64,000 nt of DNA. Source: a virus (taxonomy: Duplodnaviria > Heunggongvirae > Uroviricota > Caudoviricetes). The stretch covers positions 11,507 to 75,506 of the IMG/VR virus record IMGVR_UViG_3300008107_010192; one strand, given 5' to 3'. The translations under genes were made by a program, and so were the position numbers. Positions 4,558 to 37,236 of this stretch are shown in pieces. The number at the start of each line of letters is the position of its first letter. The first letter of the stretch is position 1. Under the pieces are notes generated by a model. The model ran no database searches. It was given only the letters and a program-made list of their open reading frames with translations, and was not told the DNA's origin.

Positions 4558-5376
4558 TTATATCAAGATGTTAATTTTTCCTTTAGTCTTTTCCGATATG
4601 ATTTTATTTTCTCCAATAAAACGGTATATTTCATCGGAAATTAGTTCATATCCAAGCTTATTTGGATGTACACCAACAAGGTTAATTGGGTTTTTAAAAT
4701 TCTCCCAAATACTTTTTTTATCAAAACTGGTTAAAAAGTCCCTAAATGTTTCTTTGCGGAATCCCCAATAGTGCCTAGTGTCGATCAAATCGGTTTTATC
4801 AATTTCCCCTATAATATTTTTTGGCAACATCATATCGAATCCATCGCAAAACAAATATCTAATACCCAAATTTTTAAACATATATTGCAAATACAATAAA
4901 TAACCCTGGTTGACTATGTTATAATAATTTTCGTTGTATAAATTAACCGTGTACCATTCCTTATAGTCGATTTTTAATTTATTATAAATTTTATTTTCCC
5001 CATTTGAGCTCAGTATATGATCGTATATGTATTTTTTGTCTAGATGTCTTTTACTCCATGAATGCCATTCATTATCTGGCGGAAAAAATGGCAATTCTTC
5101 CCTTAAGGGGGAAGACCACATTATAATCACTAGATCATTCTCTTTAATCCTACCAGTATCTATACATTTACAAACGCAATTAAATATGAATCGATTATCT
5201 GATCCACCTACTCCGTAATTTTGGAGGTCTATTTTTAATTTTTCTGCTAATTGTTTTGGCCAAGAATATTTGCTCCGAATTTTTGTTTTTTCCTCTAAAC
5301 TACTTACCGCATTCTCTTCTGCTAAATCTCCACCAACACCCTCCGTCCAGCTATCCCCGAATGTATATAATTTCAT
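4558..5376 (-). CDS. SGNH/GDSL-like hydrolase (paralog 3)
   Basis: YTFGDSWTEGVGG (block I), YGVGGSDN (block II/III), GVHPNKLGYELI (block V HPN..G). Confidence 0.55.
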   Translation of the reverse strand: MKLYTFGDSWTEGVGGDLAEENAVSSLEEKTKIRSKYSWPKQLAEKLKIDLQNYGVGGSDNRFIFNCVCKCIDTGRIKENDLVIIMWSSPLREELPFFPPDNEWHSWSKRHLDKKYIYDHILSSNGENKIYNKLKIDYKEWYTVNLYNENYYNIVNQGYLLYLQYMFKNLGIRYLFCDGFDMMLPKNIIGEIDKTDLIDTRHYWGFRKETFRDFLTSFDKKSIWENFKNPINLVGVHPNKLGYELISDEIYRFIGENKIISEKTKGKINILI

Positions 5377-5975
5377 AACAGGTTTTTTTTAAACATCTTA
5401 TTGATTTCTCTTTCTCTTACCCAAATAACTAAAATATATTTTACACCATCCACAATTGGTAAACCAGCATGTAATGATTTTTTATTTAGTGTTCTATCCG
5501 GGTTTAAATTATTCCACACCAGCAAATCCCCCTGATTTCCTTTTATTTTAATTTTTTTCAAAGGAAATTCAGTTTCTCCCCCGATATAATCATCATTTAA
5601 ATAAAATATTCCGGTTATTAATCGATCACCGCTTTCCCCATTAGGTATATTCTTTGGGTCTCCGTAGCAGTCATAATGTGGCTTGTATTCTCCCCCAATT
5701 CCATATCTTATAAAGGATACCGGGGTTTCTTGCTGATTAATGGTTGTTTTTGTTTTTTCTGAGAATATTTTACGAACTTTTTTTAGTAATTCGGATTCAT
5801 TTCCATATACAGCAATTTCAGCTTTTCTATATTTTATATCTGATTCCACATCCCCATTAATTGTTCTCGCAGTTTTAAATTCGTTAAATTCTTTTATTAA
5901 TTTTTCACAATCCATTTTATCTAATACTTCTGCATGTAATTGATATAAAAGGTTATTATTTTCAAAGTATCTCAT
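5373..5975 (-). CDS. 2OG-Fe(II) oxygenase, prolyl 4-hydroxylase-like
   Basis: KPHYDCYGDP (HxD), GGETEF, LHAGLPIVDGVKYILVIW (distal His plus basic residue). Start moved to internal Met (MRYFENN), which gives an ATGA overlap with the stop of the upstream gene; the ORF-track start 6038 would overlap 67 nt. Confidence 0.55.
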   Translation of the reverse strand: MRYFENNNLLYQLHAEVLDKMDCEKLIKEFNEFKTARTINGDVESDIKYRKAEIAVYGNESELLKKVRKIFSEKTKTTINQQETPVSFIRYGIGGEYKPHYDCYGDPKNIPNGESGDRLITGIFYLNDDYIGGETEFPLKKIKIKGNQGDLLVWNNLNPDRTLNKKSLHAGLPIVDGVKYILVIWVREREINKMFKKNLL

Positions 5976-6463
5976 ATAATAGTTTTTAATTTTCCCCAGT
6001 TCTTTATGTCCCCGTATCTTATATAAAATAACGCACAATATCTAACCCCTCTTTTTACTTTTTTCACTTCGTGATATTCGCTTGATTTATAATGATATAT
6101 TTCACCCATCGGTTTCAAGTATGGTTTATCGTTTAAATAAAACTCCCCACCTTCATAATCATCATTTAATAATATATTAATATTATAAATAAAATCTCTA
6201 CTGAGTGAATTAGTGGCGGACCCCGAATCTATATGTTTTTGAATTAGGTCACCCTCAATGTATTTTAATATACCTACATTAATTGTACTAATGTCCAAAT
6301 TTAAATACTCACTACAATATTGAATAATTAAATTTTTAATTTCACCGTCTTCGACTTCAAATAAAGTGGAATAGTATGAACCACCAGTCTTCACCCTTTT
6401 CCATAAATTTTTTGATTCTGATAACTCAATCAAATACCTACAATGACTATTTGAGATTTTCAT
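5972..6463 (-). CDS. 2OG-Fe(II) oxygenase
   Basis: QKHIDSG (HxD), YEGGEFYL, YHEVKKVKRGVRY (His and Arg). Confidence 0.55.
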   Translation of the reverse strand: MKISNSHCRYLIELSESKNLWKRVKTGGSYYSTLFEVEDGEIKNLIIQYCSEYLNLDISTINVGILKYIEGDLIQKHIDSGSATNSLSRDFIYNINILLNDDYEGGEFYLNDKPYLKPMGEIYHYKSSEYHEVKKVKRGVRYCALFYIRYGDIKNWGKLKTII

Positions 6464-6466
6464 TAT

Positions 6467-6976
6467 TTAAATTAAATTTTTATAGATTTTAATCTGATCT
6501 ATTTCATTTGTCAATGATCCATAAATTCCAATTCTTTCTGGGGTTGAAAATTCGTCACATAAAAAATCCTCTGTTTTAAAAATTAATAGATCTCCGTCTT
6601 CCAATACTATTTCTTTTATTTCATTTTTTAATCTTAATGATATCTTACTTTTAAAGGATTTTATAAAAAGAATGAATGAATATTTTGATTTTGGATTTAT
6701 CCCTCTTTTTAACTGCTTATCGAATTTTATTTCTTGGTCCAATTCCTGTTCCTGTATATAAGCGAAGGTGTTTTTGACATATACTTGAAAATCCTCTAGA
6801 GTTTCTTTTTCTAGGTTTTGTAATATGATTTCAATTATTTTTAAAGTTGTGTCCGATTCTAACCACAGGATTCTCTTATTAAATTCGGATTTTACGTGAT
6901 GTGAATTCAGTATAATATCATATTTTAATAGTTCCAAATTAATTTTTGGCTTAACGATTTTATAAAACATGATCAA
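6467..6976 (-). CDS. hypothetical protein, degenerate paralog of the neighbouring oxygenase-like gene
   Basis: Shares the GDLLIFKTEDF segment with 6973..7686 (GDLIFKTEDE) but lacks the metal-binding His/Asp residues. Confidence 0.3.
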   Translation of the reverse strand: MIMFYKIVKPKINLELLKYDIILNSHHVKSEFNKRILWLESDTTLKIIEIILQNLEKETLEDFQVYVKNTFAYIQEQELDQEIKFDKQLKRGINPKSKYSFILFIKSFKSKISLRLKNEIKEIVLEDGDLLIFKTEDFLCDEFSTPERIGIYGSLTNEIDQIKIYKNLI

Positions 6977-7629
6977 GAATTTATATGATTTTTGAAGACG
7001 ATCCTTCTATTTGTTTCCCTAATAGAATTAAAATCATAATTAATATTCGTTGTGTATACTATTCTATCAGATTCTGAACCTAATGTAAGGGTTGGCATAT
7101 GTTGTAAATCACCAGGAAAAAATAGAATATCGCTTTCTTTTGGAGTGAATGAATGTAATTTTTCGTCTTCTGTTTTAAAAATAAGATCCCCTTCTCCATC
7201 TTTAAGATCCGAAGGAATTTGTATATAAAAAACATAGGTCCATTGCGTTTTCAAATTTGTTCTATTCGATGATTCTATCCAGTCATGGGTGTGCATCCAT
7301 TCCATTTTAAAACCCGGAACTTGTATGTATATCCAACTGGATTTTATAAATCTGTCTATTTTGCAAGACAATTTTTTCCTTAAAAAATCCAATGCCTGAT
7401 TATCTACAGATCTAAATTCATCGCATCCAATATGGACGTCCAATGAATTTTGTACCCTGTATGTCTCGTTTTGGTATAAGGATTCGTTTTGATATATTCT
7501 AGTTAAAAATTCTTTTTTCGAAAACTGATTATCGTACCTTGTCTTGTAGATTGTGTATTTTTCTGACAGCTTATATTGTTCTGAAAAGTTTATTTTTTTC
7601 ATATTTCCCATATTTAGTAAACAGTTCAT
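6973..7629 (-). CDS. cupin/2OG-oxygenase-like protein (divergent)
   Basis: HTHDW and LQHMP His-containing segments flank a beta-rich core. Start is uncertain: ORF-track start 7686 overlaps the upstream gene by 116 nt and internal Mets lie at 7629/7611/7602. Confidence 0.3.
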   Translation of the reverse strand: MNCLLNMGNMKKINFSEQYKLSEKYTIYKTRYDNQFSKKEFLTRIYQNESLYQNETYRVQNSLDVHIGCDEFRSVDNQALDFLRKKLSCKIDRFIKSSWIYIQVPGFKMEWMHTHDWIESSNRTNLKTQWTYVFYIQIPSDLKDGEGDLIFKTEDEKLHSFTPKESDILFFPGDLQHMPTLTLGSESDRIVYTTNINYDFNSIRETNRRIVFKNHINS

Positions 7630-8005
7630 TTCCACGATATATTTTTTTCGTGGCAATCGATAAATTTCTATCAATATTCGGTTCACTATCCCAAGAACAG
7701 CTGTTTACCCAGTGCATGGGTGTTTTAAATATCCAATGACAATTTTTTTCTAGATTGACATTAAACGTCCATTCGTCACCAATCTTAGAAAATTCGTACA
7801 TATCATAAACATGGATCTTAACGTTATAATCAAGGGAATTTAATTCTGATTCAGTTAATTGGTAAATCCCTGAATCCCCCTTCCAGTTAACGAATATTTC
7901 TTCCCCCTCATCGATATCTCTAAGAGCAAAAATACCTACTCCGTGTATATTGCTCGGCGACATTTTAACGTTCACATGATTTTTGATGTATTCATATGCA
8001 GTCAT
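7571..8005 (-). CDS. SET-domain protein (putative protein lysine methyltransferase)
   Basis: IHGVGIFALRDIDEGEEIF (GxG..FA..I..GE.I SET N-region), VNSCSWDSEPN (NHSC.PN-like), RGNELFTKYG (EEL..YG C-flank), ~140 aa like viral vSET. Confidence 0.5.
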   Translation of the reverse strand: MTAYEYIKNHVNVKMSPSNIHGVGIFALRDIDEGEEIFVNWKGDSGIYQLTESELNSLDYNVKIHVYDMYEFSKIGDEWTFNVNLEKNCHWIFKTPMHWVNSCSWDSEPNIDRNLSIATKKIYRGNELFTKYGKYEKNKLFRTI

Positions 8006-8478
8006 TATATGAAATTTTTTGGTGTGGTTCTGAATTGAGATCCATAGTTTCCTAATATCTCTTCACCTTCTTTTATCTTTCTAATTGCAACAGGTGCCAC
8101 ATTATTATTGCTATCCACGTTACAGTTTTTCAATCCACTGTTCATAAACATTTTTGGCCAAATGTATATCCAGTGATAACCTCGCTCTAAGGGGAAAAAT
8201 ATTTTTCCATATTCCTTAGGTATGATTTGTTCGACCCCATTTTTATCAACAAACCACATTTTATTGTCAAAGGTTTCGTATAAATTTTTTTGGAGCTTAT
8301 CAGGGAGTGTGAATAATTCTTCCTGTGTAATTGAATATATCCCACTCTCCCCATGCCAAAGATCAAAAACAGATTCACCTGCTTCAATATCTCTAATGGC
8401 AAAAAATCCAACGCCCTCTACAGAACTCGGCTTAAGTATTGCTGTGACCTTTTGCTGAAGATATTCTAAAGGAGTCAT
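8005..8478 (-). CDS. SET-domain protein (paralog of 7571..8005)
   Basis: VEGVGFFAIRDIEAGESVF, MNSGLKNCNV, IKEGEEILGNYG; directly tandem to the other SET gene. Confidence 0.55.
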   Translation of the reverse strand: MTPLEYLQQKVTAILKPSSVEGVGFFAIRDIEAGESVFDLWHGESGIYSITQEELFTLPDKLQKNLYETFDNKMWFVDKNGVEQIIPKEYGKIFFPLERGYHWIYIWPKMFMNSGLKNCNVDSNNNVAPVAIRKIKEGEEILGNYGSQFRTTPKNFI

Positions 8479-8642
8479 AAATATCCACAGAATTTAAGAA
8501 TGTTTTAACTTAATCAGTTCTACAAGTTTTGACAATATAGTGAAGGTTTTCTGTTTTTTATCCTCGCTGATCGATGAAGCTTGTCTTAATTTAAGATCAA
8601 CAGTATTAATTGACTTATATTTTGTTGGTTTTATCATGATCT

Positions 8643-10517
8643 TTATATTTTTGGTATTCCTCTGTTATGTGCTAAAATTCCATTAGCAAAAAAGTTATGA
8701 TTATTTTTAATATCCTGTAAATTATAAACTAGAGTGGTTTCTTCTATCATGTTTATGTTCACAATTTTTGAGCTCCCCTTTAATAACTTTAAACAGTCTC
8801 CAATCTCTATCTTACCGATTTTAGATTCTATAGTATACAGTTTATTAGATAGATTATTATCGAATGAAGACCATCCTTTATCTTCAACATATACTGGGTG
8901 ATCTATGGTACATTTTAAAAATTCACCATTCTCTAATTCATACTCAACAATTCGGTCCACTTTTTTACTATAAACAGCATTTACTGTATTGGCCTCAATA
9001 TTATTTGATAGCATGTTAAGTGTCAGTACAGAATCACCAGCAATAATATCCTCTATATTTTTTGTAACACCTTCCGAGATGGTTATTTTCGTGCCTGCAA
9101 CGAAACATGGTGCATTGTGTGTTACGAATGAATTGACAGGAGTTGATCCTGCTATTATGTAGGTGTCAGTATCCTCAACATCAATTTCAACTAAGCTGAA
9201 ATTGTTTTCATTAATTATTAATATTTCAGAATTTGTGACCTGCGCTAATGATCCATCATAATCTACTAAGTAATCTGTCGTTGTTTTTATGTTTACAGAT
9301 TGTTTCCATACGATCGAGTCCATTCCCTCGTCATAAACTAAGAAAGATTTATGAACCGACGTATAAATTGAATCCTCGTTATTATTTACTGTTATATTAG
9401 ATAATGTTTTATTCAACAATTCTTTACTATTTTTATATATAACAGTAGATGTCGTTAGATTAGATTCCGGTGGTAAGGTGTTTCCTGATATTTGCCAAGT
9501 TGGATATGTGAAGTCGTCTTCCGTTAAATCTGTTCCCCCTATATAATAAGATTTTATTTCTTCCCCGACAGAAATGTTCCCTATTTCTACCTCAGTATCA
9601 TCAGATTTAATTATTAAATGCGTGTTTAAAATGCCATCAATTATACCATCATATTTAATAAAATTTGTTGCAAACTCGTAATAATGTTTATTGTCTATCT
9701 TATTAATGTATTGGGCTTCATTATAAATTGATTCGACAGGTAATTCAAATGCCGCACTTTCCTGAAATTGTCCTACGTGAATTAGGGACAGATCACCTCC
9801 GTAAATAATCGAGAAAGTTCTCACTGTGGAAACTTTATTATCTGAAACGGTTTGTGAACTTATGTGATATTTTTGTATTACGTTATTTTCTGTTGCCTTT
9901 TCGCTGATGAATACTCCCCATCGGCTTTGGTCTGTATCTTCAGTGGATTCGCTGCCTATTTTATAAAAATCTATAAGGGAATGTTCCGCATCGCTTATGT
10001 TTTTTATTAAGCAATCTGGCAAATTTCCCGAATTAAAATCCCTAGAAATCGTATCGTATTGTCCGAGTGAGGATGAATGATAAAACTCCGCAACGCTATC
10101 CTGCTCATTATAATCACAGAATAGCCTAAGTGTGTTTAATGTTCCCTTAGCATACTCGCTATCAAAAATGGCTGATTCGTCATACGCCATTCTCAGAACG
10201 AATAAGTCTGAAGCATCCTCAACAGGAGTCGGGTATATTCTGTTTGATTGCTCTTTTATCTCCTTAAATTCTGTGATAAATGGAGCGTTCGATGTCAATG
10301 ATTCGGAAAGTTTATCGACTATATACTGATGTATGTTCGGCTTATGTACTACCGTTACTCTTGTGATGTTATTGCTCTCTAAAACCGAGATAAGGTCGTT
10401 AAAATCCAGATAGACTAAATTATTAGTCGAAATAGTTGTGTCTGTATTTACTTCCAATAGTCTTAAATTGCCAACGCTATCCTCAATAAAATCCGCGGAA
10501 AAAAAGGTTCCTTTCAT
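8643..10517 (-). CDS. large protein with C-terminal Hint (hedgehog/intein-like) autoprocessing domain
   Basis: C-terminal ~140 aa: CFVAGTKITISEG (Hint block A Cys) ... TIDHPVYV (block B TxxH) ... NHNFFANGILAHN (blocks F/G) then RGIPKI and stop. Hint-region coordinates about 8664..9091. Confidence 0.6.
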   Translation of the reverse strand: MKGTFFSADFIEDSVGNLRLLEVNTDTTISTNNLVYLDFNDLISVLESNNITRVTVVHKPNIHQYIVDKLSESLTSNAPFITEFKEIKEQSNRIYPTPVEDASDLFVLRMAYDESAIFDSEYAKGTLNTLRLFCDYNEQDSVAEFYHSSSLGQYDTISRDFNSGNLPDCLIKNISDAEHSLIDFYKIGSESTEDTDQSRWGVFISEKATENNVIQKYHISSQTVSDNKVSTVRTFSIIYGGDLSLIHVGQFQESAAFELPVESIYNEAQYINKIDNKHYYEFATNFIKYDGIIDGILNTHLIIKSDDTEVEIGNISVGEEIKSYYIGGTDLTEDDFTYPTWQISGNTLPPESNLTTSTVIYKNSKELLNKTLSNITVNNNEDSIYTSVHKSFLVYDEGMDSIVWKQSVNIKTTTDYLVDYDGSLAQVTNSEILIINENNFSLVEIDVEDTDTYIIAGSTPVNSFVTHNAPCFVAGTKITISEGVTKNIEDIIAGDSVLTLNMLSNNIEANTVNAVYSKKVDRIVEYELENGEFLKCTIDHPVYVEDKGWSSFDNNLSNKLYTIESKIGKIEIGDCLKLLKGSSKIVNINMIEETTLVYNLQDIKNNHNFFANGILAHNRGIPKI

Positions 10518-10557: not shown

Positions 10558-10767
10558 TCACTTTTTTAGACCATATTTTATATATCTATACCATACCCTC
10601 TCGTGTAAAAAATATAAGGCCATCTTGGTTATCACCTCAAAGCCGCCAATGGCGATTCCTATTTTTATATTACCTGTTATGGCCCAGCTTAAAATAATCG
10701 TATCTAATGTTCCGACTATTCTCCATGTTATAGTTTTAGCTATGTGTCTCTTTACCTGAGGCATCAA
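10558..10767 (-). CDS. DUF2061-like small membrane protein
   Basis: VKRHIAKTITWRIVGTLDT...KMALYFLHERVW resembles the DUF2061 consensus (ITWRI..T...LHER.W). Family recalled from memory as commonly found next to APS kinase genes. Confidence 0.45.
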   Translation of the reverse strand: MMPQVKRHIAKTITWRIVGTLDTIILSWAITGNIKIGIAIGGFEVITKMALYFLHERVWYRYIKYGLKK

Positions 10768-11107
10768 TTGTTCCCTCCCTTATTTTGGTACCGCTTATTA
10801 GCGCAATATTTTCTGGGGGCTCGTGGTAAATAACCTCATAACCTACCCCTCTCCCATAATTGATTGATTCAATGTCGGGAATTATCGAAAGAAGTATTCT
10901 GTCAGAATTTTTAACAAAAAACGATTCTTTGGAAAGATCTTCCAAAATTTGTTGTGCTTTTTTTGGATTATTGGCATCTTGATCTACGTCCCTGATAGCG
11001 ACCCAAATGTTTTTTCCCTTCTCTAACTGTTGATTAATAAGCCATTCGTGTCCTTTGTGCCAGTTCTGCCATCTACCTATATAGAGAGCATATTTTTTAC
11101 CTTCCAT
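10736..11107 (-). CDS. HxGH-motif nucleotidyltransferase (cytidylyltransferase-like)
   Basis: YALYIGRWQNWHKGHEWL matches the (T/H)xGH nucleotidyltransferase signature of the TagD/NMNAT/PPAT/ATP-sulfurylase fold; small (123 aa). Confidence 0.45.
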   Translation of the reverse strand: MEGKKYALYIGRWQNWHKGHEWLINQQLEKGKNIWVAIRDVDQDANNPKKAQQILEDLSKESFFVKNSDRILLSIIPDIESINYGRGVGYEVIYHEPPENIALISGTKIREGTIDASGKETHS

Positions 11108-11113
11108 TAATAT

Positions 11114-11542
11114 TTATACGCGCAGAAGGAGACAAAGTTCCACGAAAGATCTTTCTATGCTGGATCCGTTTCGAAAAATTAAAAAGTTTTCCTCAGGACC
11201 TTCAAAATTTTTAACGTGTAACTTTTCCTTCCCTCCGTAATCGTTCCTGGAAAATAAAACCTCTACAACATCGTTATTTTGCTTTAGATCTTCCCTTATA
11301 GCACGATAAGGACAAACCATACTTATCACCACGTTATGTCCTTTAACCGACATAAAACGAGCTATAGTGAAGGACCTTTCTATGTTCTTGATCCTGCCAG
11401 AATAAGAATAGTCAGTATTGGGGAATATTTCCCTCAGATCATCGCCATCTATCCATACAGTTCCCATTCCTAATCTTCTAACTAAGAGCTCTGCCATTGT
11501 AGTTTTACCCGATCCTGGCTGTCCTATTAATAGGTATATCAT
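11114..11542 (-). CDS. P-loop kinase, adenylylsulfate (APS) kinase-like
   Basis: LIGQPGSGKTT (Walker A), WIDGDDLREIF (compare CysC LDGDNVRHGL), RIKNIERSF...VVISMVCPYRAIRE (compare CysC RKENIRRV...VLTAFISPHRAER). Confidence 0.5.
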   Translation of the reverse strand: MIYLLIGQPGSGKTTMAELLVRRLGMGTVWIDGDDLREIFPNTDYSYSGRIKNIERSFTIARFMSVKGHNVVISMVCPYRAIREDLKQNNDVVEVLFSRNDYGGKEKLHVKNFEGPEENFLIFRNGSSIERSFVELCLLLRV

Positions 11543-19562: not shown

Positions 19563-20709
19563 ACTCTAATAAATAATCTCCAATGTCTAGATTTCTTATA
19601 GAATCCATCATTTTTAAAAAATTGGAAGATTTTTTTTCTAAATTCCCATCTTTTTTATTTTCTATCTCGTACATAAATCTATTTCTGTCGCCATCTCCCA
19701 ATTTGTAGATTTGCTCCATTGCAAGATCCTTCAGCTTTGGGTGTAAACAAGATATGTGTAAGTAATTGGGGCTATAGACAAAATTATATTCAATTTGTTC
19801 ACCGGAAAAAAACTCTCTAAAATTCCACACATTACAAACATTCAAAACACTTATTGTCTGGGTTATAGTAATTTGTAATTTTTCTTTTTTCAGTTTTAAA
19901 AAATTATCATACACAACTTCCCATTTTGAAGGATATCTTATATAATCATTCCTATTTCCAACGTCGTCTATAGAAAGCTGTAGTTTTACCTCCCGAAATT
20001 CTCTTAACAGCTCTAAAAACCTGTCTGGTAAATTTGTACAGTTTATGTTATATACCAGCTTTATATTTTTTGATTTGTCTAGAGAAATCAACTTCTCCAA
20101 AAAGTAAAAATGCTCCTTTATCAACGTTGGTTCTCCCCCGTTGATGTAAATTTCCTCCAATTCGCTAGAATGCTTTAATAATTCATCATACCATTCTTTG
20201 TTTTTAAACCAATCGCTTTTATAATCTTCATAGTTGTAATGATCGTCTCCGAACGTGGACGGAAATCTTTTAACATCTTCTATCCACTTGCTACTTGACA
20301 TCGGGTTGCATGTTAAACACTTTATGTTACAAACATTACCGAGTCTTAATTCGATAAACTTAAGATGTATATTTGGGAGTTTTTCGCTTATACTTATTTT
20401 ATTGAGATATTTAGCATTTTCTTCATCTCTTTTACTCTTGAATCCGTTTTCTTCTATCCTGTAACAACCTATACATTCGATAGGTTTCTCATTATTCATC
20501 ATCTTTCTTCTAATTTCTGTGAAAGAATCAGAATTCATAATGTCTTCTATGCTATCCTTACCTAGGGTTAATACTCTATTTTTAGTTTTGGAGAAACAAA
20601 CCCCATTTTCAAAATTAGCAATACAACAAGGTGACACCAGCCCGTTAGGATGAGTTGCTAAATGCGTAAACGGTAACGAACATATAGTTTTTAAATTTGT
20701 GTCCACCAT
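19540..20709 (-). CDS. radical SAM enzyme with N-terminal 4-Cys module
   Basis: CSLPF...SPCCIANF...ECIGCY (C...CC...CxxC), GNVCNIKCLTC (CxxxCxxC), IYINGGEPTL (GGE SAM-binding motif). Confidence 0.6.
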   Translation of the reverse strand: MVDTNLKTICSLPFTHLATHPNGLVSPCCIANFENGVCFSKTKNRVLTLGKDSIEDIMNSDSFTEIRRKMMNNEKPIECIGCYRIEENGFKSKRDEENAKYLNKISISEKLPNIHLKFIELRLGNVCNIKCLTCNPMSSSKWIEDVKRFPSTFGDDHYNYEDYKSDWFKNKEWYDELLKHSSELEEIYINGGEPTLIKEHFYFLEKLISLDKSKNIKLVYNINCTNLPDRFLELLREFREVKLQLSIDDVGNRNDYIRYPSKWEVVYDNFLKLKKEKLQITITQTISVLNVCNVWNFREFFSGEQIEYNFVYSPNYLHISCLHPKLKDLAMEQIYKLGDGDRNRFMYEIENKKDGNLEKKSSNFLKMMDSIRNLDIGDYLLEYENCDLL

Positions 20710-22028
20710 TCTAATAATTTTTTGTTTTGTCCTAGAATATTCTCAAATGTTAATGATCCATTTAAACCGTCCTTTCTGAACTCTGCTATTCTTATCATGT
20801 TTTCTTTCCCTCTCTTTCTGCCCTCTTTATAATCTGGATACGATTCTTCGAAAGTTTTTTTGGTTTTTAAATCTTCTAAAGCCTCCACATAAATTTGGGT
20901 TTTCGATGTAACCCTTGGCTTAATGTAATCTAGGGTATCGTCTATAATTTCTTCGAGGATGGACCTAGGTATTGACAATGGAGACATAAGAACAGAGGAA
21001 TCGAAAGAAAAAGTTGTTTTTATATAGGTTACTACATTTAATTCCACTGCACGATCGAATAATTCTTTTATAGACAGTAGGCCTGGAAGAGTTATTGTAA
21101 GATCAAAAACCATTCCATGATCGCCGTATAAATCGTTTAGAAAAAGACCTCCCTTAAAATTATCTAGCCACTTTTCCCACACTATTCCAGTTCTGATAAA
21201 TTCAACAATTTTTCCAGTTCCATCTATACTTGCACACAGATTTACCCTTTTAAAATGAGGCAGAAAATCATATAGATTCATTCCTTTATATGATACCCTG
21301 CTTAAATTTGTGTTGTATCTTATTATAACATTCTTGGATTGATTATTATCAACCAAATACTTCATGATATCCCAATGAATGTCCCACATCAATGGTTCAC
21401 CACCTACCCAATATATTTCTTCTATTCTATTCTCTTTCACTGCTTCCCAAAGTTCGTTTTCAGTAACTTCTTTCTGGAATTTTTTAAATTTTTCTTGATT
21501 TTCTTTTTTATAAAATGGCTCGGTTTCTAAATTAATGTTGCCCATTATTTTTCTTTCCGCCTCCCACTGTGAACTTAACAAGTCGCCACACATTCTACAT
21601 TTAAAATTACACAGATTACTTATCCGATAGTCATATGATATTGGTTTCATGTGAGTGTAACCATCATCTTCCGTTTTTTCGAATATCTCGTCTATTTTGT
21701 GGGGAAAAAGTGTATTGGTGAAATAACCTTTGTATGTGTAAAGATTTAGAATTTGATCGTTACAAACCTGACATTGTGGAATTGACTCTCCGGACATTAT
21801 TCTTTTTCTAATGTTTTTCATATAATCACTATTCCAATGATCCTCCAGCGAAACTGGTTTAAAATGTGAGTTATCGTCAGGATTTTCAGAATCTATGTAC
21901 TGTTTAATATAGTTTGCCTTTTCCCTACTTGCACAACATAATCTTCTTTCCCCCTGTGGGGAAAGATATGTGTGTGTCCACGGTGCTGTACAAAAAAATT
22001 CATTTCCATCCGAAGGTTTTATTCTCAT
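20691..22028 (-). CDS. radical SAM enzyme with N-terminal 4-Cys module (paralog)
   Basis: FFCTAPWTH...RRLCCASR...PQCQVCND, SNLCNFKCRMC, YWVGGEPLMW. Confidence 0.6.
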   Translation of the reverse strand: MRIKPSDGNEFFCTAPWTHTYLSPQGERRLCCASREKANYIKQYIDSENPDDNSHFKPVSLEDHWNSDYMKNIRKRIMSGESIPQCQVCNDQILNLYTYKGYFTNTLFPHKIDEIFEKTEDDGYTHMKPISYDYRISNLCNFKCRMCGDLLSSQWEAERKIMGNINLETEPFYKKENQEKFKKFQKEVTENELWEAVKENRIEEIYWVGGEPLMWDIHWDIMKYLVDNNQSKNVIIRYNTNLSRVSYKGMNLYDFLPHFKRVNLCASIDGTGKIVEFIRTGIVWEKWLDNFKGGLFLNDLYGDHGMVFDLTITLPGLLSIKELFDRAVELNVVTYIKTTFSFDSSVLMSPLSIPRSILEEIIDDTLDYIKPRVTSKTQIYVEALEDLKTKKTFEESYPDYKEGRKRGKENMIRIAEFRKDGLNGSLTFENILGQNKKLLEWWTQI

Positions 22029-22945
22029 ATTAATCTGCTAGATTTTATTATATTCTGCGTATAGAGATCACCCCTTCCGTTTGAAATCCATTCATACAAC
22101 AATTCTGCCCATAATTTGTGCGATTTGGGTGTTGGATGTACACCATATAATCTTTCCTCCAACGGTATCTGTTTTATATAATTTAAAAATGAATTTGATG
22201 GCTTGTCTTTCATCAGAAAATTGGATTCTGGTACATGGTCCCATTTTAATTTACTCATACGGTATAGATCCTCCCCCCAAATACCTTCAACATATTTGAA
22301 AGAATCTATCCATTTCATAATATTTAAGTCTATAAATTTTCTTTCCATTTTATAGATATGATGTTCCTCAGGTAAAGCATTGAACAAATAACATGGAATT
22401 CCGTACTTATCGCAAAACGTACGTATTTCAAAATTGTAGTTTATGAAATCGTACGCTCCTTCATAGTCATTTTGAACAACCGATAAATACCACTTAAAGA
22501 ATTCCCTCATTCCATATTCCTCTTTATTGAAATCTCCGTTACTGTTTAGAGTTTTTCGGTATATTTTATTATGAGTATTGAAAAAAAATTCCTTTCTAAC
22601 TATAGAGGTCCATCCAATGACTACAATGATGTCATCTGGAGTTTTATTAGGGACAATGTAGTTTTCAAGTAGCCAGTTTAAAAGTGTTTCAAAAATCCAT
22701 TTGTTACCTACTGCAGGCTTGGCTAAATTTATAACCTCTTTTGCCCCTATTAATTCTTTTAAATATGTTGGCCAAATTCTTTCAATCCTATATTGATCGT
22801 TTTTTGCGTCAGTATCTTCTTCTATTATCCCGTTAAATTTATTTATTTGGTGAGGCTTTGATGGAGCTTCCAAAAACTGTGGGTCCACAATTTCACTACC
22901 ATATGTAAAGCTATCTCCGCACACAACTAATTTCATTTCACTCAT
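22025..22945 (-). CDS. SGNH/GDSL-like hydrolase paralog
   Basis: KLVVCGDSFTYGSEI (GDS block), C-terminal YGVHPTPKSHKLWAEL (block V-like). Confidence 0.4.
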   Translation of the reverse strand: MSEMKLVVCGDSFTYGSEIVDPQFLEAPSKPHQINKFNGIIEEDTDAKNDQYRIERIWPTYLKELIGAKEVINLAKPAVGNKWIFETLLNWLLENYIVPNKTPDDIIVVIGWTSIVRKEFFFNTHNKIYRKTLNSNGDFNKEEYGMREFFKWYLSVVQNDYEGAYDFINYNFEIRTFCDKYGIPCYLFNALPEEHHIYKMERKFIDLNIMKWIDSFKYVEGIWGEDLYRMSKLKWDHVPESNFLMKDKPSNSFLNYIKQIPLEERLYGVHPTPKSHKLWAELLYEWISNGRGDLYTQNIIKSSRLI

Positions 22946-24497
22946 CTTTAATATATTTTAGCATTTCATCCTGGATATCGGGTTCGATGTAATCCTGAGA
23001 TCCTGGATTGCTATTTTGAGGATCTAATACCCATCCCTCTTTTTTTGCGGTTTCTATCACATCGTCGACATATTTATTAGATTTAGCATCGTCACCATCA
23101 ACCATTCCTATTTCAAGGGGCTCTATTTTTGTTTCAGGTATCGAATCGAACCATTCTGATAACATCGGGAATGATTCTTTAAAATTCCTATTTCTTCTTA
23201 TGTCATATTGAATATAAAAAGATTTAAAATCTCTTTCTCTAGATTCAATAGATGATGTAAATCTATGCCCAGTTTCAACTTCTCTTATGTAAGCAATCAT
23301 TCTGATTATTCCATCTCTCTCAATATCTAGTAAATCAGAAATATTCTTACTTAGCCATCCCTCTATATGATTTGCTCGTTCAATTCTTATGTCTTGCGGT
23401 AGTGTAACTATAGACTGAAAGCTTGGAAACCTTAATATATTAAAAGAACAAATCGGGAAATGCTTGCCAAATTTTTTCTTCATTTTAATTACCTCATCCA
23501 TAAATTCAGTAAGACTAAACAGACACAAAGAATTTATAGTCATCATTACGTTTAGGGATGCCAATTTACCTTCTTCACAAACCCTGTACATATTTTTAAG
23601 CCATTTTTCCCAGATTAATCCATATCTGATATACTCAGCTTGCTTCCCTGTTGCTTCGCATGATGTGTAGAGATGAAACGTTTTAAAGCTGTGTGTCGAC
23701 TTAATAAGTTCTTCCAAGAGTTCGTCTTTCTGTCCTAGATTGGAGTTAACTGCAAATTCCACACTACAATCCTTATTGGTTTCCCACCATTTCATCAGTT
23801 TCCAGAAATCTTGAGACATTGTTGGTTCACCTCCTGTTACTCTCAATTCTCTTAAAGAATATTGAAGCTCTCCCTCCCACCATTTCCAAAATGCTTCGAT
23901 GTATGGATTTCCGATATTTTTTTTACCGTATGGGAGAGAGTGCGAACCATCATGCTGGAAAGCAGCTGCACCATCACTTACTAAATTCTGATATGGGCCG
24001 AACTTTTTTATATCATTTTGCCAGGTTGTAGAAAATGAAGAATTGCAGTAAGAGCATGCAAAGTTACAATTGGGATCGAATGCAATTTCTAATGTTTTTA
24101 GATCCACGTCTTGCTGCCATCCGAGTTTGTTCTTGGCATCTTTTAGTTCTTCATCGGTGTAAATAACAGATTTATAAACCCGATCAGAAACTTTGTCGCT
24201 TCCCATGTCCTCTATTTTCCAGCAATACTCGCATTCTTTAGGTCTTTCTCCCTCCAGCATTTGTTTTCTGACCAATTTTTTATAGCTAGTGTTGTGTATT
24301 GCTTTATAACTTTGCGCAACTTCTGCGAGGGGTATTTTATGAGCTGGGGGGTGATGGCAACTAGCTGTAGTTCCGTTTCCTAACCAGATTGTTGCGTTAT
24401 ACCATTTAGCACCACAGAAGGAAGGGGAAACAGAGTTTATCGCTCTGTCCCTATATTCTTGGTAGCTCTCCTCTCCTTTTTTTGCAAATATTCCCAT
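22938..24497 (-). CDS. radical SAM enzyme with N-terminal Cys/His module (paralog)
   Basis: SFCGAKW...ASCHHPPAHKIP...ECEYCWKIED, DPNCNFACSYC, LRVTGGEPTM. Confidence 0.6.
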   Translation of the reverse strand: MGIFAKKGEESYQEYRDRAINSVSPSFCGAKWYNATIWLGNGTTASCHHPPAHKIPLAEVAQSYKAIHNTSYKKLVRKQMLEGERPKECEYCWKIEDMGSDKVSDRVYKSVIYTDEELKDAKNKLGWQQDVDLKTLEIAFDPNCNFACSYCNSSFSTTWQNDIKKFGPYQNLVSDGAAAFQHDGSHSLPYGKKNIGNPYIEAFWKWWEGELQYSLRELRVTGGEPTMSQDFWKLMKWWETNKDCSVEFAVNSNLGQKDELLEELIKSTHSFKTFHLYTSCEATGKQAEYIRYGLIWEKWLKNMYRVCEEGKLASLNVMMTINSLCLFSLTEFMDEVIKMKKKFGKHFPICSFNILRFPSFQSIVTLPQDIRIERANHIEGWLSKNISDLLDIERDGIIRMIAYIREVETGHRFTSSIESRERDFKSFYIQYDIRRNRNFKESFPMLSEWFDSIPETKIEPLEIGMVDGDDAKSNKYVDDVIETAKKEGWVLDPQNSNPGSQDYIEPDIQDEMLKYIKDE

Positions 24498-24498
24498 G

Positions 24499-25152
24499 TT
24501 AAATTATTTTGGCGCTAGGCGCTATTTTATTGAATTCGTTGATCGAATGGCTAGAGTATTCTGGATCTTCAAATATAATTCCATGATTTCCGTTCCCACT
24601 TTTATCGAATGTTTTAAATTTTGAATTTCTTTCAAAATCAAAAAACGAGTACAGCTTTTTTGATTTCTCGTCAAAGGAATCGACGATTTCATCGAAAACT
24701 GCAATTTTATAAATATCCCCTTTGAACCAGCATTCATAAGATCCACTGTATGGATTTATAGATCCTATAAAAATATTCTTGTCCGAATAAGATTCAATTG
24801 GACCGGTTTCTTTTTCACCTTTTAAAATTCCATCGATGTATATTTTAACAGAATCTGAAACTGTCACCATGACCTCCATTCTTTTATGTATATCATCAAC
24901 AGGTATCCAAATATCGTTATATTGATAGGGTTTAGTGTACCAAGAGAATTTAACACCATTTGGTTTCTGTAAAAATATTCCCATATGGTATCCTATCCTT
25001 CCTACAATCAACGACTCATCCTCTGCAAACTCAGAGAGTTGAAAATCCCCATAAAGAGAAAAATTCCCCTCCAGATTTTCAAAATTCTTTGTGTTCGTAT
25101 TATTTTTAGAATTGTTTGGGATGTAATATGCTTTCTTTTCGAATCTCATCAA
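24499..25152 (-). CDS. LamG/concanavalin-like domain protein (tentative)
   Basis: MVTVSDSVKIYIDGILKGE...IFIGSINPYSGSYECWFKGDIYKIAVFDE resembles the LamG_3/pentraxin-type beta-sandwich. Confidence 0.35.
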   Translation of the reverse strand: MMRFEKKAYYIPNNSKNNTNTKNFENLEGNFSLYGDFQLSEFAEDESLIVGRIGYHMGIFLQKPNGVKFSWYTKPYQYNDIWIPVDDIHKRMEVMVTVSDSVKIYIDGILKGEKETGPIESYSDKNIFIGSINPYSGSYECWFKGDIYKIAVFDEIVDSFDEKSKKLYSFFDFERNSKFKTFDKSGNGNHGIIFEDPEYSSHSINEFNKIAPSAKII

Positions 25153-26531
25153 ATTATTTTTTTATAAAATTCCTCAAATTCTGGAAAAACCTTCAAAAAA
25201 TTGGTGCCTCTTCTTTTATCGTGATTGTCTACAAAAATTCGGAAATCCCTCCTGTTCTGTAATAAGGTCTCTTCAGGTTCTTCCGTTACCATCCAATCAT
25301 GAATTCTATTTAACTTATTGATTTCGATGTCGGTATATCCAAATCCATCAAGACCAACTCTTATTTGTTCGTAGAAGTCCATTAGCTGAGCTTGCTCTTT
25401 TACTACTGCAGACCATTCCTTATCTAATATTTTCACTGTCTGGTGTGGAGGCCACCTTAAATAGGACGAGTCTAACATAATAGAGGAGCCATAGTATCTG
25501 TGAGGGTTGTGATATTCTTCCTTAAGCTTTATCACATTTTCTATTAGCTTTTTATAATTAGGAACGGAAAGTGCGTTATATGTGGACATTATTATTACGG
25601 TCAGAGGCTCAATTTCCTTCAATAGAAAATTAACTCTATCCCACCATTGGTTGAAGACCAAACCATGTCTAATGTATTCAGCTTGTTCTCCCCAGGTATC
25701 TGCACTGGTAAATAGTATCACCTCGTTTACCCTGTTCTCGTCTATCATTCTTTTTAATTTTTCTACCATTAGATTAAAAAGCTTATCTGGTGCTCCTAAA
25801 TTCGTATTGAGAGAAAAATTTAAATTTCTGTTTGGGTTTTTTTCATCCAGGATATAATCAAAAACCTTAAAAGTGTCTTTAGACAGAAGAGGTTCCCCTC
25901 CTGTTATTCTAAAAGTATGAAGATCTCTGTATAAATCAGGCCACCATTTCCAGAAAGCCTCAACGTATGGGTTCTCCTGATTATGCGGTCTTGGGATCAT
26001 GTTCAGATCCTTCAAATATTCTAAATTGTTAAATCTAAAGCTGGTAGGATATGGTCCATGCTGCTCTATTTCTTGAACCCATTGGGAAGAGAACGACGGT
26101 CCACAATACGAGCATTTAAAATTACAGTGATTACTAAAAGCTACCTCAACATACTTAGGATTGTAATTTTCTTTCCACCCTAAATCTTTTATTTCATTAA
26201 AATATGGGGCAGACCAGGGTTCAGAAGATTTATAAATTCTATCGGAAAATGCATTTGATGTATCTTCTATATTCCAGCAATAATCGCATTCATCTGGTCT
26301 TTTACCATGAAGCATTTTTCTTCTCTGCTGCTTTTTATAAACTGTATTATGTAGAGCAGATGGGTTTTTTTCTAACTCTGATAGTGGGATATGATGCGTG
26401 CCTGGATGGTGACACGAATGTGTTTGTCCCATTTGTAAATGAAGTGTTACTTGAGTCCATTTTGCTAAACAAAAGCCACATCCAACATCGTTTAATTTAT
26501 TTCTAGTTTTGTCGAAAAATTCGTTTAGCAT
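25149..26531 (-). CDS. radical SAM enzyme with N-terminal Cys/His module (paralog)
   Basis: GCGFCLAKW...HSCHHPGTHHIP...ECDYCWNIED, SNHCNFKCSYC, FRITGGEPLL; closest paralog of 22938. Confidence 0.6.
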   Translation of the reverse strand: MLNEFFDKTRNKLNDVGCGFCLAKWTQVTLHLQMGQTHSCHHPGTHHIPLSELEKNPSALHNTVYKKQQRRKMLHGKRPDECDYCWNIEDTSNAFSDRIYKSSEPWSAPYFNEIKDLGWKENYNPKYVEVAFSNHCNFKCSYCGPSFSSQWVQEIEQHGPYPTSFRFNNLEYLKDLNMIPRPHNQENPYVEAFWKWWPDLYRDLHTFRITGGEPLLSKDTFKVFDYILDEKNPNRNLNFSLNTNLGAPDKLFNLMVEKLKRMIDENRVNEVILFTSADTWGEQAEYIRHGLVFNQWWDRVNFLLKEIEPLTVIIMSTYNALSVPNYKKLIENVIKLKEEYHNPHRYYGSSIMLDSSYLRWPPHQTVKILDKEWSAVVKEQAQLMDFYEQIRVGLDGFGYTDIEINKLNRIHDWMVTEEPEETLLQNRRDFRIFVDNHDKRRGTNFLKVFPEFEEFYKKII

Positions 26532-27838
26532 TATAGTAATCTTTTTTTAATTATCGGATTGAGACTCTCCAAACAAATTAGATCGTTTGGTAAATTTCTG
26601 TGTTTTGAATTATTTGCAATCATTAAATCGTGTCTTTCTTTATGATTTACCCATGGATTATCTCCAAATAATCTTATATGTTCATTTATACTCGATATAA
26701 ATATCTTCGATTCAAAGTCGTCGTTATCTAAAATAAACTCTGGAAGATGATACGAATTAACAAACGGAACAATGTAATCATAATTTCGCCTGAGAATTGA
26801 TTCAAAGCTATTTTTTATATTCGCTCCGTCAAGTAATATACATCCATTCTTGACGTAGAATATTATATTCTTTTTACTATCCTTTAAAATATTTAAAATT
26901 ATTTGGGATTCTAAATCTTCCGATGATGTGTCCAAGAAAACATATTCATATTCAAAATGATCAGTAATCATGCTTCTGAGCGTCTCCTTGCTGTTTTTTT
27001 CGATCACAAAATATCTAAGATTTTTAAATTTATTTTTATAAAAGTTTAGGGTAGTTTCCAAAACCCCTCCATAATTTTCTTCAGTTCCATCTACCGAAAC
27101 AAAAGCACAGACCTCAGTAGAGATGCACGGTATGTCTTCATATGGTGGATAATGATTGTCTCTAAAATTTACTAGCTGTTTATAAAGAGAATTTGATATG
27201 GTTGAAGGAAATTCGCAGTTTGATAACGCAAGGCCAAAAACAGCTCCCTCTCCTCTTAAATCATCATCAGCCTCCTTCGCTACCTTTTTTCTAAGCATCG
27301 AATAAAATTCATAGGTTTCAAACAATTTGTCTATCTTTTCTTCGTCAATACCCTCGAAATTAAAATACATTAAATCTTCCCATGGAGTAACTGTATTTCT
27401 AAATTCAACATTATTTTTTATCAGCTCATCTTTAAATTTTCCAAGTTTTGGATTCGTTTCTAATAAGGCTTTGAAATGTATGCTTGTAAATCTGTTGTAT
27501 GAAAATCCTGGATTAAAATTCTTAGAAATAATATCATTTATGAATTCTTCAGAATTTATCAATATCAGATCAGAATCCATATAAAGTATTTTATTATACC
27601 CTCTTTTTCTTACCTGGTTAATGAATATAAATTTGCTATGAAAATCAAAGGTTGTGGAAAAATCGTGCTTTATTGTTTCAACCCCTTCCATGTCTTTGAA
27701 TTCTGACACATTATCAGTGTAAACAAATATTTTAAAAGATCCACTATCAGTGAAATTCTTTATTAAAAATTTGCAGCAGGTATAATAATACTCAGTATTA
27801 GAAGCAATTGTCGCTATTGCTATTTTATTTTCCATCAT
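26531..27838 (-). CDS. hypothetical protein (possible glycosyltransferase-like)
   Basis: 435-aa ORF in the gene string; no confident motif. N-terminal KIAIATIASNTEYYYTCCKF. Confidence 0.3.
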   Translation of the reverse strand: MMENKIAIATIASNTEYYYTCCKFLIKNFTDSGSFKIFVYTDNVSEFKDMEGVETIKHDFSTTFDFHSKFIFINQVRKRGYNKILYMDSDLILINSEEFINDIISKNFNPGFSYNRFTSIHFKALLETNPKLGKFKDELIKNNVEFRNTVTPWEDLMYFNFEGIDEEKIDKLFETYEFYSMLRKKVAKEADDDLRGEGAVFGLALSNCEFPSTISNSLYKQLVNFRDNHYPPYEDIPCISTEVCAFVSVDGTEENYGGVLETTLNFYKNKFKNLRYFVIEKNSKETLRSMITDHFEYEYVFLDTSSEDLESQIILNILKDSKKNIIFYVKNGCILLDGANIKNSFESILRRNYDYIVPFVNSYHLPEFILDNDDFESKIFISSINEHIRLFGDNPWVNHKERHDLMIANNSKHRNLPNDLICLESLNPIIKKRLL

Positions 27839-29281
27839 TTATGCTTTGCAATTAATCAGAAGGGTATTGTTGAATACCTCTTTAGTAGAGACTAACTCGT
27901 ACTTCATACTGTTGAATCCCTCACTTTTATAGTTTATACATTTCCTTTGCATTTCGGTTACGAACCTTTTTTCATTTCTTGCTGTTGTTTCCCCCTTTGC
28001 CCACTTATTATTTACTAGCCCTTCGTCAATGTGTGGTAAACACTCGAAAGATCCTTCTCTCCTATAAGGAATTGGCATGTCGCTAACCTCGATGGAATCT
28101 TCAACGATTTCTAAATTATAAGCCTTAGCTTTAATTCCACTCATTACGTCTTCGATTTCTCCATTTTCTATCAAATCAAATTTAAAATGCAGAACTGGCT
28201 TATGTTTTAAATCGTGAAATTTAGTAACATCTCCTGGAATTTTTACTGCCTTATCAAAAATCATTAATTCTGCAATTTCACCTCTAAAAAATAATGGATT
28301 TTCCTCGTCGCCGTTATATCCCACGATAGATTTTTCTTTATCCCTATACTGAAATAAATCATTATTTATTATTGTAGATTTATTTTCTTTGATTCCTTTT
28401 TCGTTAGATCTTGCTAGTTCGTCATTTAGAAAAAAATTAAAGTGACCACTTGAAGAATCATAAGATGTTGTTACCCAGGACCAAACACCATCATCCCTCT
28501 TGATCCAATTATAGATCTGGGATGATGAAAAATCTGAAATCATGCTAGTAACAGCTCTGGAGTTGTTAAAAGATATGCAGTACGGACTATATGATTGCTT
28601 TCGGAAAACCGGAAATTCTATGAATTTTTTGTCATCCGTTCCTATTAGCCAATCTTTATATTTTTCAGGTTGTTGTTCTGCTTTAAATAGAGCACATACC
28701 GTATGATCTGATCCCAGTATTTTGTTTATGGATTTTATCCATGGGATTTCAACATATGAGTTGTTTCCATTAAATCTTGAAAATTTTCTTTTTTTATATT
28801 TTTTATAAATCCTTTTTTCAACATATCCTTCGAAATAACATCGATAAAAAAGGTCGTCATCTTCCATACCCCAATCCCAATAATCATTAGAATATCCGTT
28901 AGTTTTTATAACTTGATCCTTAGTAAATAGAATTACCCCACCGAAGTATTGTTCATAATTTAGTTTGAAATCGTACTTCGAAAGTTTTGTTGCTATATGA
29001 ATTGGATATTTTTCCGGATATGAATAGTCACAATCATCGGAGAATGGCACCATATCAACGTCATGCCATGCAATATAATCACATCCATCATCGAAGGCAA
29101 ACTTGGCTGCTATGTTTTTCATTAGTCCCCTATTAAACAGCTTATTATCCACCTGATGGGCCACATAAAATTTATGATCTATTCCACGATTTTTTAGATA
29201 CTCCCCCAGGTCTTCAGTTAGCTTCTGTAAGTGATCGAATCTATTTCTGTAAGGTATGCAAATTCCCAGTTTATGACTCAT
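27839..29281 (-). CDS. GT7-family (beta-1,4-galactosyltransferase-like) glycosyltransferase with C-terminal LamG-like extension
   Basis: LGICIPYRNRFDHL (PFRxRxxHL), FNRGLMKNIAAKFAF (FNRxxLxNxGF), YIAWHDVDMVPF (HDVDxxP); C-terminal FFRGEIAELMIFDKAV resembles a LamG end. Confidence 0.55.
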   Translation of the reverse strand: MSHKLGICIPYRNRFDHLQKLTEDLGEYLKNRGIDHKFYVAHQVDNKLFNRGLMKNIAAKFAFDDGCDYIAWHDVDMVPFSDDCDYSYPEKYPIHIATKLSKYDFKLNYEQYFGGVILFTKDQVIKTNGYSNDYWDWGMEDDDLFYRCYFEGYVEKRIYKKYKKRKFSRFNGNNSYVEIPWIKSINKILGSDHTVCALFKAEQQPEKYKDWLIGTDDKKFIEFPVFRKQSYSPYCISFNNSRAVTSMISDFSSSQIYNWIKRDDGVWSWVTTSYDSSSGHFNFFLNDELARSNEKGIKENKSTIINNDLFQYRDKEKSIVGYNGDEENPLFFRGEIAELMIFDKAVKIPGDVTKFHDLKHKPVLHFKFDLIENGEIEDVMSGIKAKAYNLEIVEDSIEVSDMPIPYRREGSFECLPHIDEGLVNNKWAKGETTARNEKRFVTEMQRKCINYKSEGFNSMKYELVSTKEVFNNTLLINCKA

Positions 29282-36838: not shown

Positions 36839-37220
36839 GGGGGTGTATTTGGCACTTGACAGACATTGGTAGTTCTTTGAGATGATGCAGGCCGAGTTAG
36901 TATTGGAAACTCGTTAATCACCTATGCAAACAATAAACGACGTAGAATTATCTACAATGACCTTCGAAGACGCTATGTCTTTCGTTGGTGCTGATTACGC
37001 AATAGCTGCCTAATCCCTCCCGCACACATCGTGGGGCTTAAAATAGAATGTGAACCCAGGTGGAATATGACTGAACCCGAAATCGAGTCATCTGAATTTG
37101 GTAGTTTAATCAGCCAACTATAAACTACATATTTTGTTTGTAAAGAAAAACAAGCTAAGCCTGTGAATGAGTTTCTTTTAACAGATGGACTGGACACCGG
37201 TTCGATTCCGGTCACCTCCA
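36839..37220 (+). ncRNA. ssrA: tmRNA (SsrA-like transfer-messenger RNA)
   Basis: 5' GGGGGTG pairs with 3' CACCTCC, giving a 7-bp acceptor with a G3:U70 wobble (Ala identity). T-arm ACCGG-TTCGATT-CCGGT precedes it; discriminator A then CA. Internal reading frame ends ...GADYAIAA-TAA (a YALAA-type degradation tag). About 380 nt. Confidence 0.65.
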
Positions 37221-37236
37221 CAAAAATTAATTTAAT

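Follow-up and report, generated by a model that had tools for sequence, protein, structure and literature searches.

This study concerns two adjacent genes, SET-A and SET-B, in a 64,000-nucleotide (nt) stretch of DNA from a tailed phage (Caudoviricetes; IMG/VR record IMGVR_UViG_3300008107_010192, positions 11,507 to 75,506), hereafter the window. A sequence-only reading had proposed a tandem pair of SET-domain, lysine methyltransferase-like genes at positions 7571-8478, and two open reading frames (ORFs) were found exactly there on the minus strand. One base is shared between the SET-B stop codon and the SET-A start codon (TAATG), a junction that is the usual sequence signature of translational coupling. 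The encoded proteins are paralogous to each other, at 34% identity (E 2e-26), in agreement with the proposal of a duplicated and diverged pair, and all of the motifs that had been quoted were recovered in both ORFs: GVGFFA, IEAGESV, MNSGLKNCN and EEILGNYG in SET-B, and GVGIFA, IDEGEEI, VNSCSWDSEPN and NELFTKYG in SET-A. Neither sequence (157 and 144 amino acids (aa), respectively) has Cys-rich flanks, and each corresponds to a minimal SET core without pre- or post-SET modules. The phage-like setting was also borne out, as the window carries 21 tRNAs, a tmRNA, and collagen-like tail-fibre and baseplate-type genes (PHROG matches), and has relatives on IMG/VR viral contigs; its source is a large, uncultivated tailed phage of aquatic origin.

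Several observations indicate that SET-A and SET-B are real genes. In addition to the coupled junction, both proteins showed dN/dS values of 0.06-0.30 relative to orthologues in related loci (L003, L004 and L006), which is indicative of purifying selection. Homologues of the same length were found in 42 metagenomic clusters for SET-B (59-80% identity) and 114 for SET-A (51-78% identity), and identical copies of both genes were present on a 219-kb contig.

Independent tests agreed that both proteins have the SET fold, as judged from sequence and predicted structure. Both ORFs scored above the curated cutoff of 22.4 bits for the Pfam SET hidden Markov model (HMM; PF00856), with 33.1 bits for SET-B (E 7.7e-8, aligned across the whole 105-position model) and 31.8 bits for SET-A (E 2e-7), which argues that their likeness to SET motifs is not due to chance. 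A profile built from the two families and searched against the PDB matched SET lysine methyltransferases only, led by MLL3 (E 3e-4) and followed by EZH2, Plasmodium PFL0690c, MLL4, MLL1, vSET and SETD8. AlphaFold2, given alignments of 51 and 58 rows, returned confident models (predicted local distance difference test scores (pLDDT) of 91.3 and 87.1). When compared with the PDB using Foldseek, their top matches were all SET domains, with vSET (3kma) first (E 6e-5) and template modelling (TM) scores of 0.36-0.52, which supports assignment of both to the SET fold (SET-N, SET-I and SET-C beta-sheets). Profile-profile alignment to canonical phage SET proteins with hhalign gave a probability of 99.8% (E 1.8e-29), and bridge sequences matched both the family profile and Pfam SET strongly (90-114 bits).

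Most of the residues expected of a SET active site were retained. In the numbering of SET-B, G22 and G24 (motif I, GxG), N113 (motif III), and E140 and Y145 (motif IV) were invariant in both paralogue families, and G22-V-G24 was also invariant in all 60 unique viral members collected. The motif III Asn (N113 in SET-B, N101 in SET-A) aligned onto the canonical Asn, and the motif IV pair corresponds to E127/Y132 in SET-A. Since GEEILGNY aligned residue for residue with GEEITYDY and GEEItEnY, Y145 is the predicted catalytic tyrosine. In the bridge sequences and the profile-profile alignment, N113-S114 was placed on the N-H of NH(S/C)xxPN. While GxG, the motif III Asn and the motif IV Glu and Tyr were kept in 25 of 25 unique members of the lineage, the motif III His was absent throughout (Asn-Ser in 20 of 25, Asn-Thr in 5 of 25, Asn-His in none of the 25). 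More distant viral relatives keep it, reading (F/Y)(M/I/L)NHS(D/E)xPN and GEE(I/L)xE(N/D)Y, and these alignments place SET-A and SET-B on a derived branch, lacking the His, within a viral SET family that is otherwise canonical. Mutation of the motif III His has been used to inactivate several eukaryotic SET enzymes, yet in SET7/9-type structures this residue touches S-adenosylmethionine (SAM) mainly through its backbone, so that Ser or Thr could be tolerated. Activity of SET-A and SET-B is therefore likely but not assured.

Searches for relatives indicate that this family of stand-alone SET proteins, of 130-175 aa, is virus-restricted. A degenerate-pattern scan of IMG/VR for stand-alone SET ORFs of 117-174 aa returned 62 viral loci. 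Exhaustive searching of 1.84 billion cluster representatives with HMMER returned 738 proteins at E<=1e-3 and 69 at E<=1e-10, nearly all of 130-160 aa. In cellular genomes, only relatives of <=33% identity were found, scattered in unrelated metagenome-assembled genomes (MAGs), and these pointed to no host. Among 50,697 GenBank phage records, neither tblastn with SET-A, SET-B or the N-domain of the neighbouring Hint protein (described below) nor megablast with 7 kb of sequence gave a match. A distant family member weakly matched ORFs of two cultured phages, namely ORF62 of Stenotrophomonas phage vB_SmaM_Ps15 and a locus of Synechococcus phage SynMITS9220M01. The former is annotated as 'SET domain protein' and was placed among proteins of unknown function (PMC9025141). 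The latter, in a T4-like cyanophage (myovirus), is a 123-aa ORF with a TTG start just upstream of purM (MT408532.1 51718..52089; L065 4971-5342); it carries the canonical motifs GGVGVF, YVNHSDNPN and KKGEELLYRYS, and the existing annotation covers its last 64 codons only, as a hypothetical protein. Both resemble the family in being small SET ORFs of tailed phages, but unlike the SET-A/SET-B pair they are single copies in other contexts.

Functional annotation of the family was sparse. NCBIfam, PHROGs and PADLOC searches with the SET ORFs gave a single weak match, to phrog_28741 of unknown function, and lent no support to a defence or anti-defence role. Fusions of family members were mostly uninformative, with the exceptions of one FRG-domain fusion and P0177, in which a class I methyltransferase is fused to a SET family member. 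Public pipelines already tag many members with PF00856, and the SET domain call itself is thus not new. In the searchable literature, no paper was found that links SET domains to phage biology or addresses the function of this family; nor did any paper found describe how broad the viral family is, its sub-lineage without the His, the coupled pair that has been retained or the conserved gene cassette around it.

We next consider genomic context, for which all ORFs of 65 loci were clustered; three recurrent contexts emerged. Loci of the window's type (Group 1) share the order Hint-domain protein, 47-aa ORF, SET and small 2-oxoglutarate (2OG)-oxygenase-like genes, and in the window the order is Hint-domain protein, 47-aa protein, SET-B, SET-A and 2OG-Fe(II) oxygenases (Table 1). 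Group 2 (L028-L060) comes from phages that are much smaller, and its one canonical SET gene lies between the Pfam-confirmed small and large terminase subunits and a gene of ~600 aa that has the size of a portal gene, without Pfam confirmation; the neighbours of SET in these loci are conserved small non-enzymatic ORFs of 70-150 aa, one of them zinc-ribbon-like, with no metabolic genes. Group 3 comprises few loci, with membrane-transporter-like and DNA-methylase-like neighbours identified by eye only.

The tandem B-then-A arrangement was found in L001-L004, L006 and three Tara Oceans contigs (L147-149). In the latter, SET-B and SET-A are 63% and 55% identical to those of the window, and the 1-nt overlap, the Hint protein and the 47-aa ORF are kept, while the upstream flanks differ; the cassette is conserved between freshwater-type and marine contigs. 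In L007 and L017, A-type and B-type genes lie ~1.1 kb apart. Every complete B-type locus holds an A-type gene within ~1.7 kb and A-types also occur alone, which marks SET-B as the accessory, derived paralogue, kept with SET-A over long divergence.

Table 1. Positions of the SET pair, its cassette and other features of the window.
Feature	Coordinates	Strand	Description
SET-B	8005..8478	minus	157 aa, predicted minimal SET-domain protein; SET-N ~residues 11-45, SET-I insert ~46-100, SET-C ~101-146, conserved C-terminal tail ...TPKNFI
SET-A	7571..8005	minus	144 aa, SET-B paralogue with shorter SET-I
47-aa ORF	8494..8637	minus	between the Hint gene and SET-B; below default ORF length cut; sequence MIKPTKYKSINTVDLKLRQASSISEDKKQKTFTILSKLVELIKLKHS
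Hint-domain protein	8643..10517	minus	624 aa; ~460-aa N-domain and one C-terminal Hint (intein-like) domain ending HN-R
2OG-Fe(II) oxygenase-like gene	6973..7686	minus	directly downstream of SET-A; phrog_81 (E 6.5e-11), weak TIGR02466 match
Three small genes	5373..6976	minus	two 2OG-FeII_Oxy_3 (prolyl 4-hydroxylase (P4H)-type) oxygenases and one paralogue of the 6973..7686 gene
Cytidylyltransferase-like protein	10736-11107	minus	
Adenosine 5'-phosphosulfate (APS)-kinase-like P-loop protein	11114-11542	minus	
Possible sulfotransferase	2390-2881	minus	SLPRTGSTSL motif, without Pfam confirmation
CxxxCxxC-containing ORF	1-677	minus	cut by the window start
Eight large ORFs	20691-30684	minus	unusually long run of large ORFs; radical-SAM PHROG matches in at least four
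727-aa ORF	40547-42730	plus	radical-SAM PHROG match
tmRNA	36839-37221	plus	predicted tag DVELSTMTFEDAMSFVGADYAIAA
21 tRNA genes	38885-61141	plus	mostly in three clusters
Collagen-like/long-tail-fibre ORF	46184-49315	plus	
Collagen-like/long-tail-fibre ORF	48798-50822	plus	
UDP-galactopyranose mutase	61176-62264	plus	conserved 362-aa gene; ~50% identical to Streptococcus phage glf

The Hint family was the most persistent neighbour of SET, adjoining it in 25 of the 65 loci and down to ~30% SET identity. Residues 463-621 of the window protein matched the Pfam AXH, Intein_splicing, PT-HINT, Vint and Hint families, and NCBIfam models of intein N- and C-termini gave hits as well. This Hint domain is not followed by a +1 Cys, Ser or Thr, which makes autoprocessing likelier than splicing. 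No fold could be assigned to the ~460-aa N-domain, which gave no profile match in the PDB; an ATP-grasp fold, considered on account of its LLEVNTDT motif, was not supported, as RimK was matched by only one of six members, at E 0.027. The N-terminus of the family always read MKGT[LF]FSADF...LRLLE[VIL]NTDT (window, L005, L007, L010, L017, L018 and L026). The number of Hint domains varied, with one in the window protein, two in tandem in L005 and L010, and three in L007; each tandem unit ends ...HN[RK] and is followed immediately by the C-F-[VI]-x-G-T of the next. The L017 copy is 912 aa long, and the versions in L018 and L026 are of 499 aa, ending ...MHN followed by a Cys-rich tail (e.g. GCWCSWSYCGNYCYSYYCPTCAWGGGG).

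Gene calls for the 47-aa ORF exist in L001, L002 and L147-149, and tblastn recovered it in the corresponding place throughout L001-L014 and in L017, with identities from 89% down to ~28%. Residues P4, Y7, K8, K37 and H46 were invariant, and K28, L41 and K45 nearly so. Its product is a candidate partner or substrate of the SET proteins. A weak match below threshold (E 0.4-1.6) in L018-L026 lies directly downstream of the Hint gene, with SET two or more genes further, and the main association of the 47-aa protein may thus be with the Hint protein.

On the other side of the pair, the true start of the oxygenase-like gene downstream of SET-A is likely to lie near 7611, which would leave ~40 nt shared with the end of SET-A; a 212-aa oxygenase-like gene with a 41-nt overlap was called in L002, whose sequence is identical here. 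As annotated in the window, the gene overlaps the 3' end of SET-A over 7571-7686 on the minus strand, where SET-A encodes a poorly conserved C-terminus of low pLDDT. This oxygenase family co-occurs with SET in 18 loci. Two of the three small genes beyond it matched PF13640 (E 2.1e-12 and 1.8e-6), phrog_61 was also matched in this group of genes, and the clusters to which the three belong (2, 4 and 19) also co-occur with SET. In relatives, other modifying enzymes take up positions next to SET: a class I methyltransferase lies directly downstream in seven loci (L008-L014), and a tryptophan halogenase (Pfam E 1e-101) directly upstream in three (L027, L030 and L031). The sequence-only reading had also raised the collagen-like fibre as a target of methylation. 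Its genes lie on the opposite strand at a distance of 38 kb and were not found together with SET in related loci, and this link was abandoned as unsupported. The lasting partners of SET are the Hint-domain protein, the 47-aa ORF and the 2OG oxygenases.

Based on sequence and context, we favour with moderate confidence the reading that SET-A and SET-B are diverged minimal class V SAM-dependent methyltransferases that probably act on a phage or host protein, possibly as a heterodimer. That they are active methyltransferases is likely, and we consider the chances of a protein substrate to be somewhat better than even. Both proteins would bind SAM and pass the methyl group to a nitrogen nucleophile, most probably the epsilon-amine of a protein lysine, that is presented in a Y145-lined channel, and their different SET-I inserts may direct them to different sites or substrates. 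By analogy with dimeric vSET, SET-A and SET-B may form a heterodimer, an idea indirectly supported by their translational coupling and by the finding that B never occurs without A. A protein rather than a pathway substrate is suggested by the single-copy relatives that reside in packaging modules without metabolic neighbours. Candidate targets, in order of preference, would be a phage protein of the cassette (the 47-aa protein or an N-domain released by the Hint protein), virion proteins, and host nucleoid-associated or translation proteins. The adjacent oxygenases and, in relatives, the class I methyltransferase may share this target. It is plausible, as first suggested, that lysines of a virion or host protein are methylated. 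A more elaborate scheme appears unlikely as a whole: in it, the autoprocessing Hint protein and the 47-aa protein would serve as substrate or scaffold of a phage tailoring cassette in which methyl-lysine is installed by a heterodimer of the two His-less SET proteins, and further modifications are made by the 2OG-Fe(II) oxygenases, joined in relatives by the class I methyltransferase or the tryptophan halogenase.

Certain observations weigh against protein methylation by an active SET pair. The Foldseek TM-scores were modest and ~80-90 of the 144/157 residues superposed on known SET domains, the motif III His is missing from the whole lineage, and lysines make up 4 of the 8 conserved non-initiator positions of the 47-aa ORF, a proportion that is suggestive and statistically weak. 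Moreover, a SET protein of the same size methylates a free amino acid: BurB of Burkholderia thailandensis (PDB 9l4t) is a SET-domain methionine S-methyltransferase (PMC12542666). SET-A and SET-B could likewise methylate a free amino acid or metabolite, such as Met to S-methylmethionine or a tailoring precursor, instead of protein lysine, and the enzyme-rich island in which they lie (oxygenases, kinase-like and radical-SAM genes) would suit such a role. However, no match to BurB was detected at E values up to 10 with either single sequences or family profiles, the BurB structure ranked behind ~28 lysine or PR-type SET structures, and the burB gene resides in a polyketide/dimethylsulfoniopropionate (DMSP) cluster rather than a phage cassette. 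We therefore regard small-molecule methylation of this type as improbable.

It is also conceivable that one or both paralogues are inactive SET/PR-like modules with a binding or regulatory role, for example as a pseudo-enzyme partner or a binder of lysine ligands. Consistent with this, the His is lost in every lineage member while distant viral relatives keep NHS(D/E)xPN, and many PR-domain proteins of the same fold were among the structural matches. Several PR-domain proteins lack activity, and duplicated enzyme pairs that are retained often include a pseudo-enzyme. Nevertheless, GxG, Asn, Glu and the catalytic Tyr are invariant under purifying selection in both families, which would be unexpected if the SAM site were dispensable, and the backbone nature of the His contact could make Ser or Thr tolerable at this position; we judge inactivity to be improbable. 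The notion that these are not SET proteins at all, and instead have a cupin or other small beta-fold with a chance likeness to SET motifs, could draw on the modest TM-scores and on the fact that single sequences matched SET domains of the PDB weakly, at E values of 0.15 or higher, but no cupin or other beta-fold appeared among the Foldseek or HMM profile matches and we regard it as refuted.

The chlorovirus PBCV-1 protein vSET (A612L; PDB 1n3j and 3kma), to which the pair had been likened on the basis of size, is a dimeric minimal viral H3K27 methyltransferase. The resemblance held in general features, as SET-A and SET-B are, like vSET, virus-encoded, small, stand-alone minimal SET proteins without pre- or post-SET zinc modules and with GxG and a catalytic Tyr. 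It did not extend to a specific relatedness: MLL3 and EZH2 scored above vSET (E 0.044) with the family profile, SET-A and SET-B carry a ~55-residue SET-I insert that is largely absent in vSET, and the lineage is without the canonical NH-motif His. Compared to eukaryotic SET domains (MLL1/MLL3, EZH2, G9a, SET7/9 and SETD8), the two proteins are phage-encoded and have neither flanking domains nor a Zn-binding post-SET, Asn-Ser or Asn-Thr replaces Asn-His, and superposition is confined to the ~80-90 residues noted above. The dimeric state of vSET is from Manzur et al. 2003, as cited in PMC10117894. Prokaryotic SET enzymes are known to methylate non-histone DNA-binding proteins, with Chlamydia cpnSET acting on Hc1 and Methanosarcina Go1-SET on MC1-alpha (PMC10117894). 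Being small SET enzymes of organisms without nucleosomal histones, these offer a plausible functional model by analogy, and it is from them that nucleoid-type or DNA-packaging targets may be proposed for SET-A and SET-B. Their genomic context differs, however, and cellular relatives of SET-A and SET-B reach no more than 33% identity. For BurB there was no detectable sequence similarity.

The SET pair lies within a 32-kb minus-strand block in which genes for 2OG-Fe(II) oxygenases, for radical-SAM proteins and for APS-kinase-like and nucleotidyltransferase-like products are plentiful. A scan for promoters and terminators performed at chance level (25 found vs 25.4 expected) and gave no minus-strand terminator-like site inside the block. 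Elsewhere in the window, the two collagen-like/long-tail-fibre ORFs overlap by ~518 nt in a locally GC-rich region (0.45-0.49 vs ~0.32 in other parts); the overlap could be explained by a frameshift, a repeat assembly problem or genuinely overlapping genes. The conserved 362-aa gene was considered as a lineage marker and set aside, since it encodes UDP-galactopyranose mutase and is hence uninformative for lineage.

SET enzymes have been studied almost entirely as eukaryotic chromatin writers, together with a few bacterial effectors and chlorovirus vSET. The present analysis indicates that tailed phages hold a broad and essentially unstudied family of minimal SET proteins, found at 62 IMG/VR loci that span three or more unrelated genomic contexts. 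Phage hosts are without histones, and any activity of SET-A and SET-B would thus mean either that phages use lysine or other methylation to modify proteins of the bacterium or the virion, or that there is a new SET chemistry. The lineage described here offers an experimentally tractable entry, as it combines a coupled paralogue pair, a lost His, and tight linkage to a Hint protein and to the 47-aa protein with its conserved lysines. If the two proteins are ordinary protein methyltransferases with a mundane target, then their identification would be a useful annotation and not a discovery. If, on the other hand, the tailoring cassette exists as outlined, which we hold to be unlikely, it would be the first bacteriophage system of protein-lysine methylation, conserved from freshwater to marine phages.

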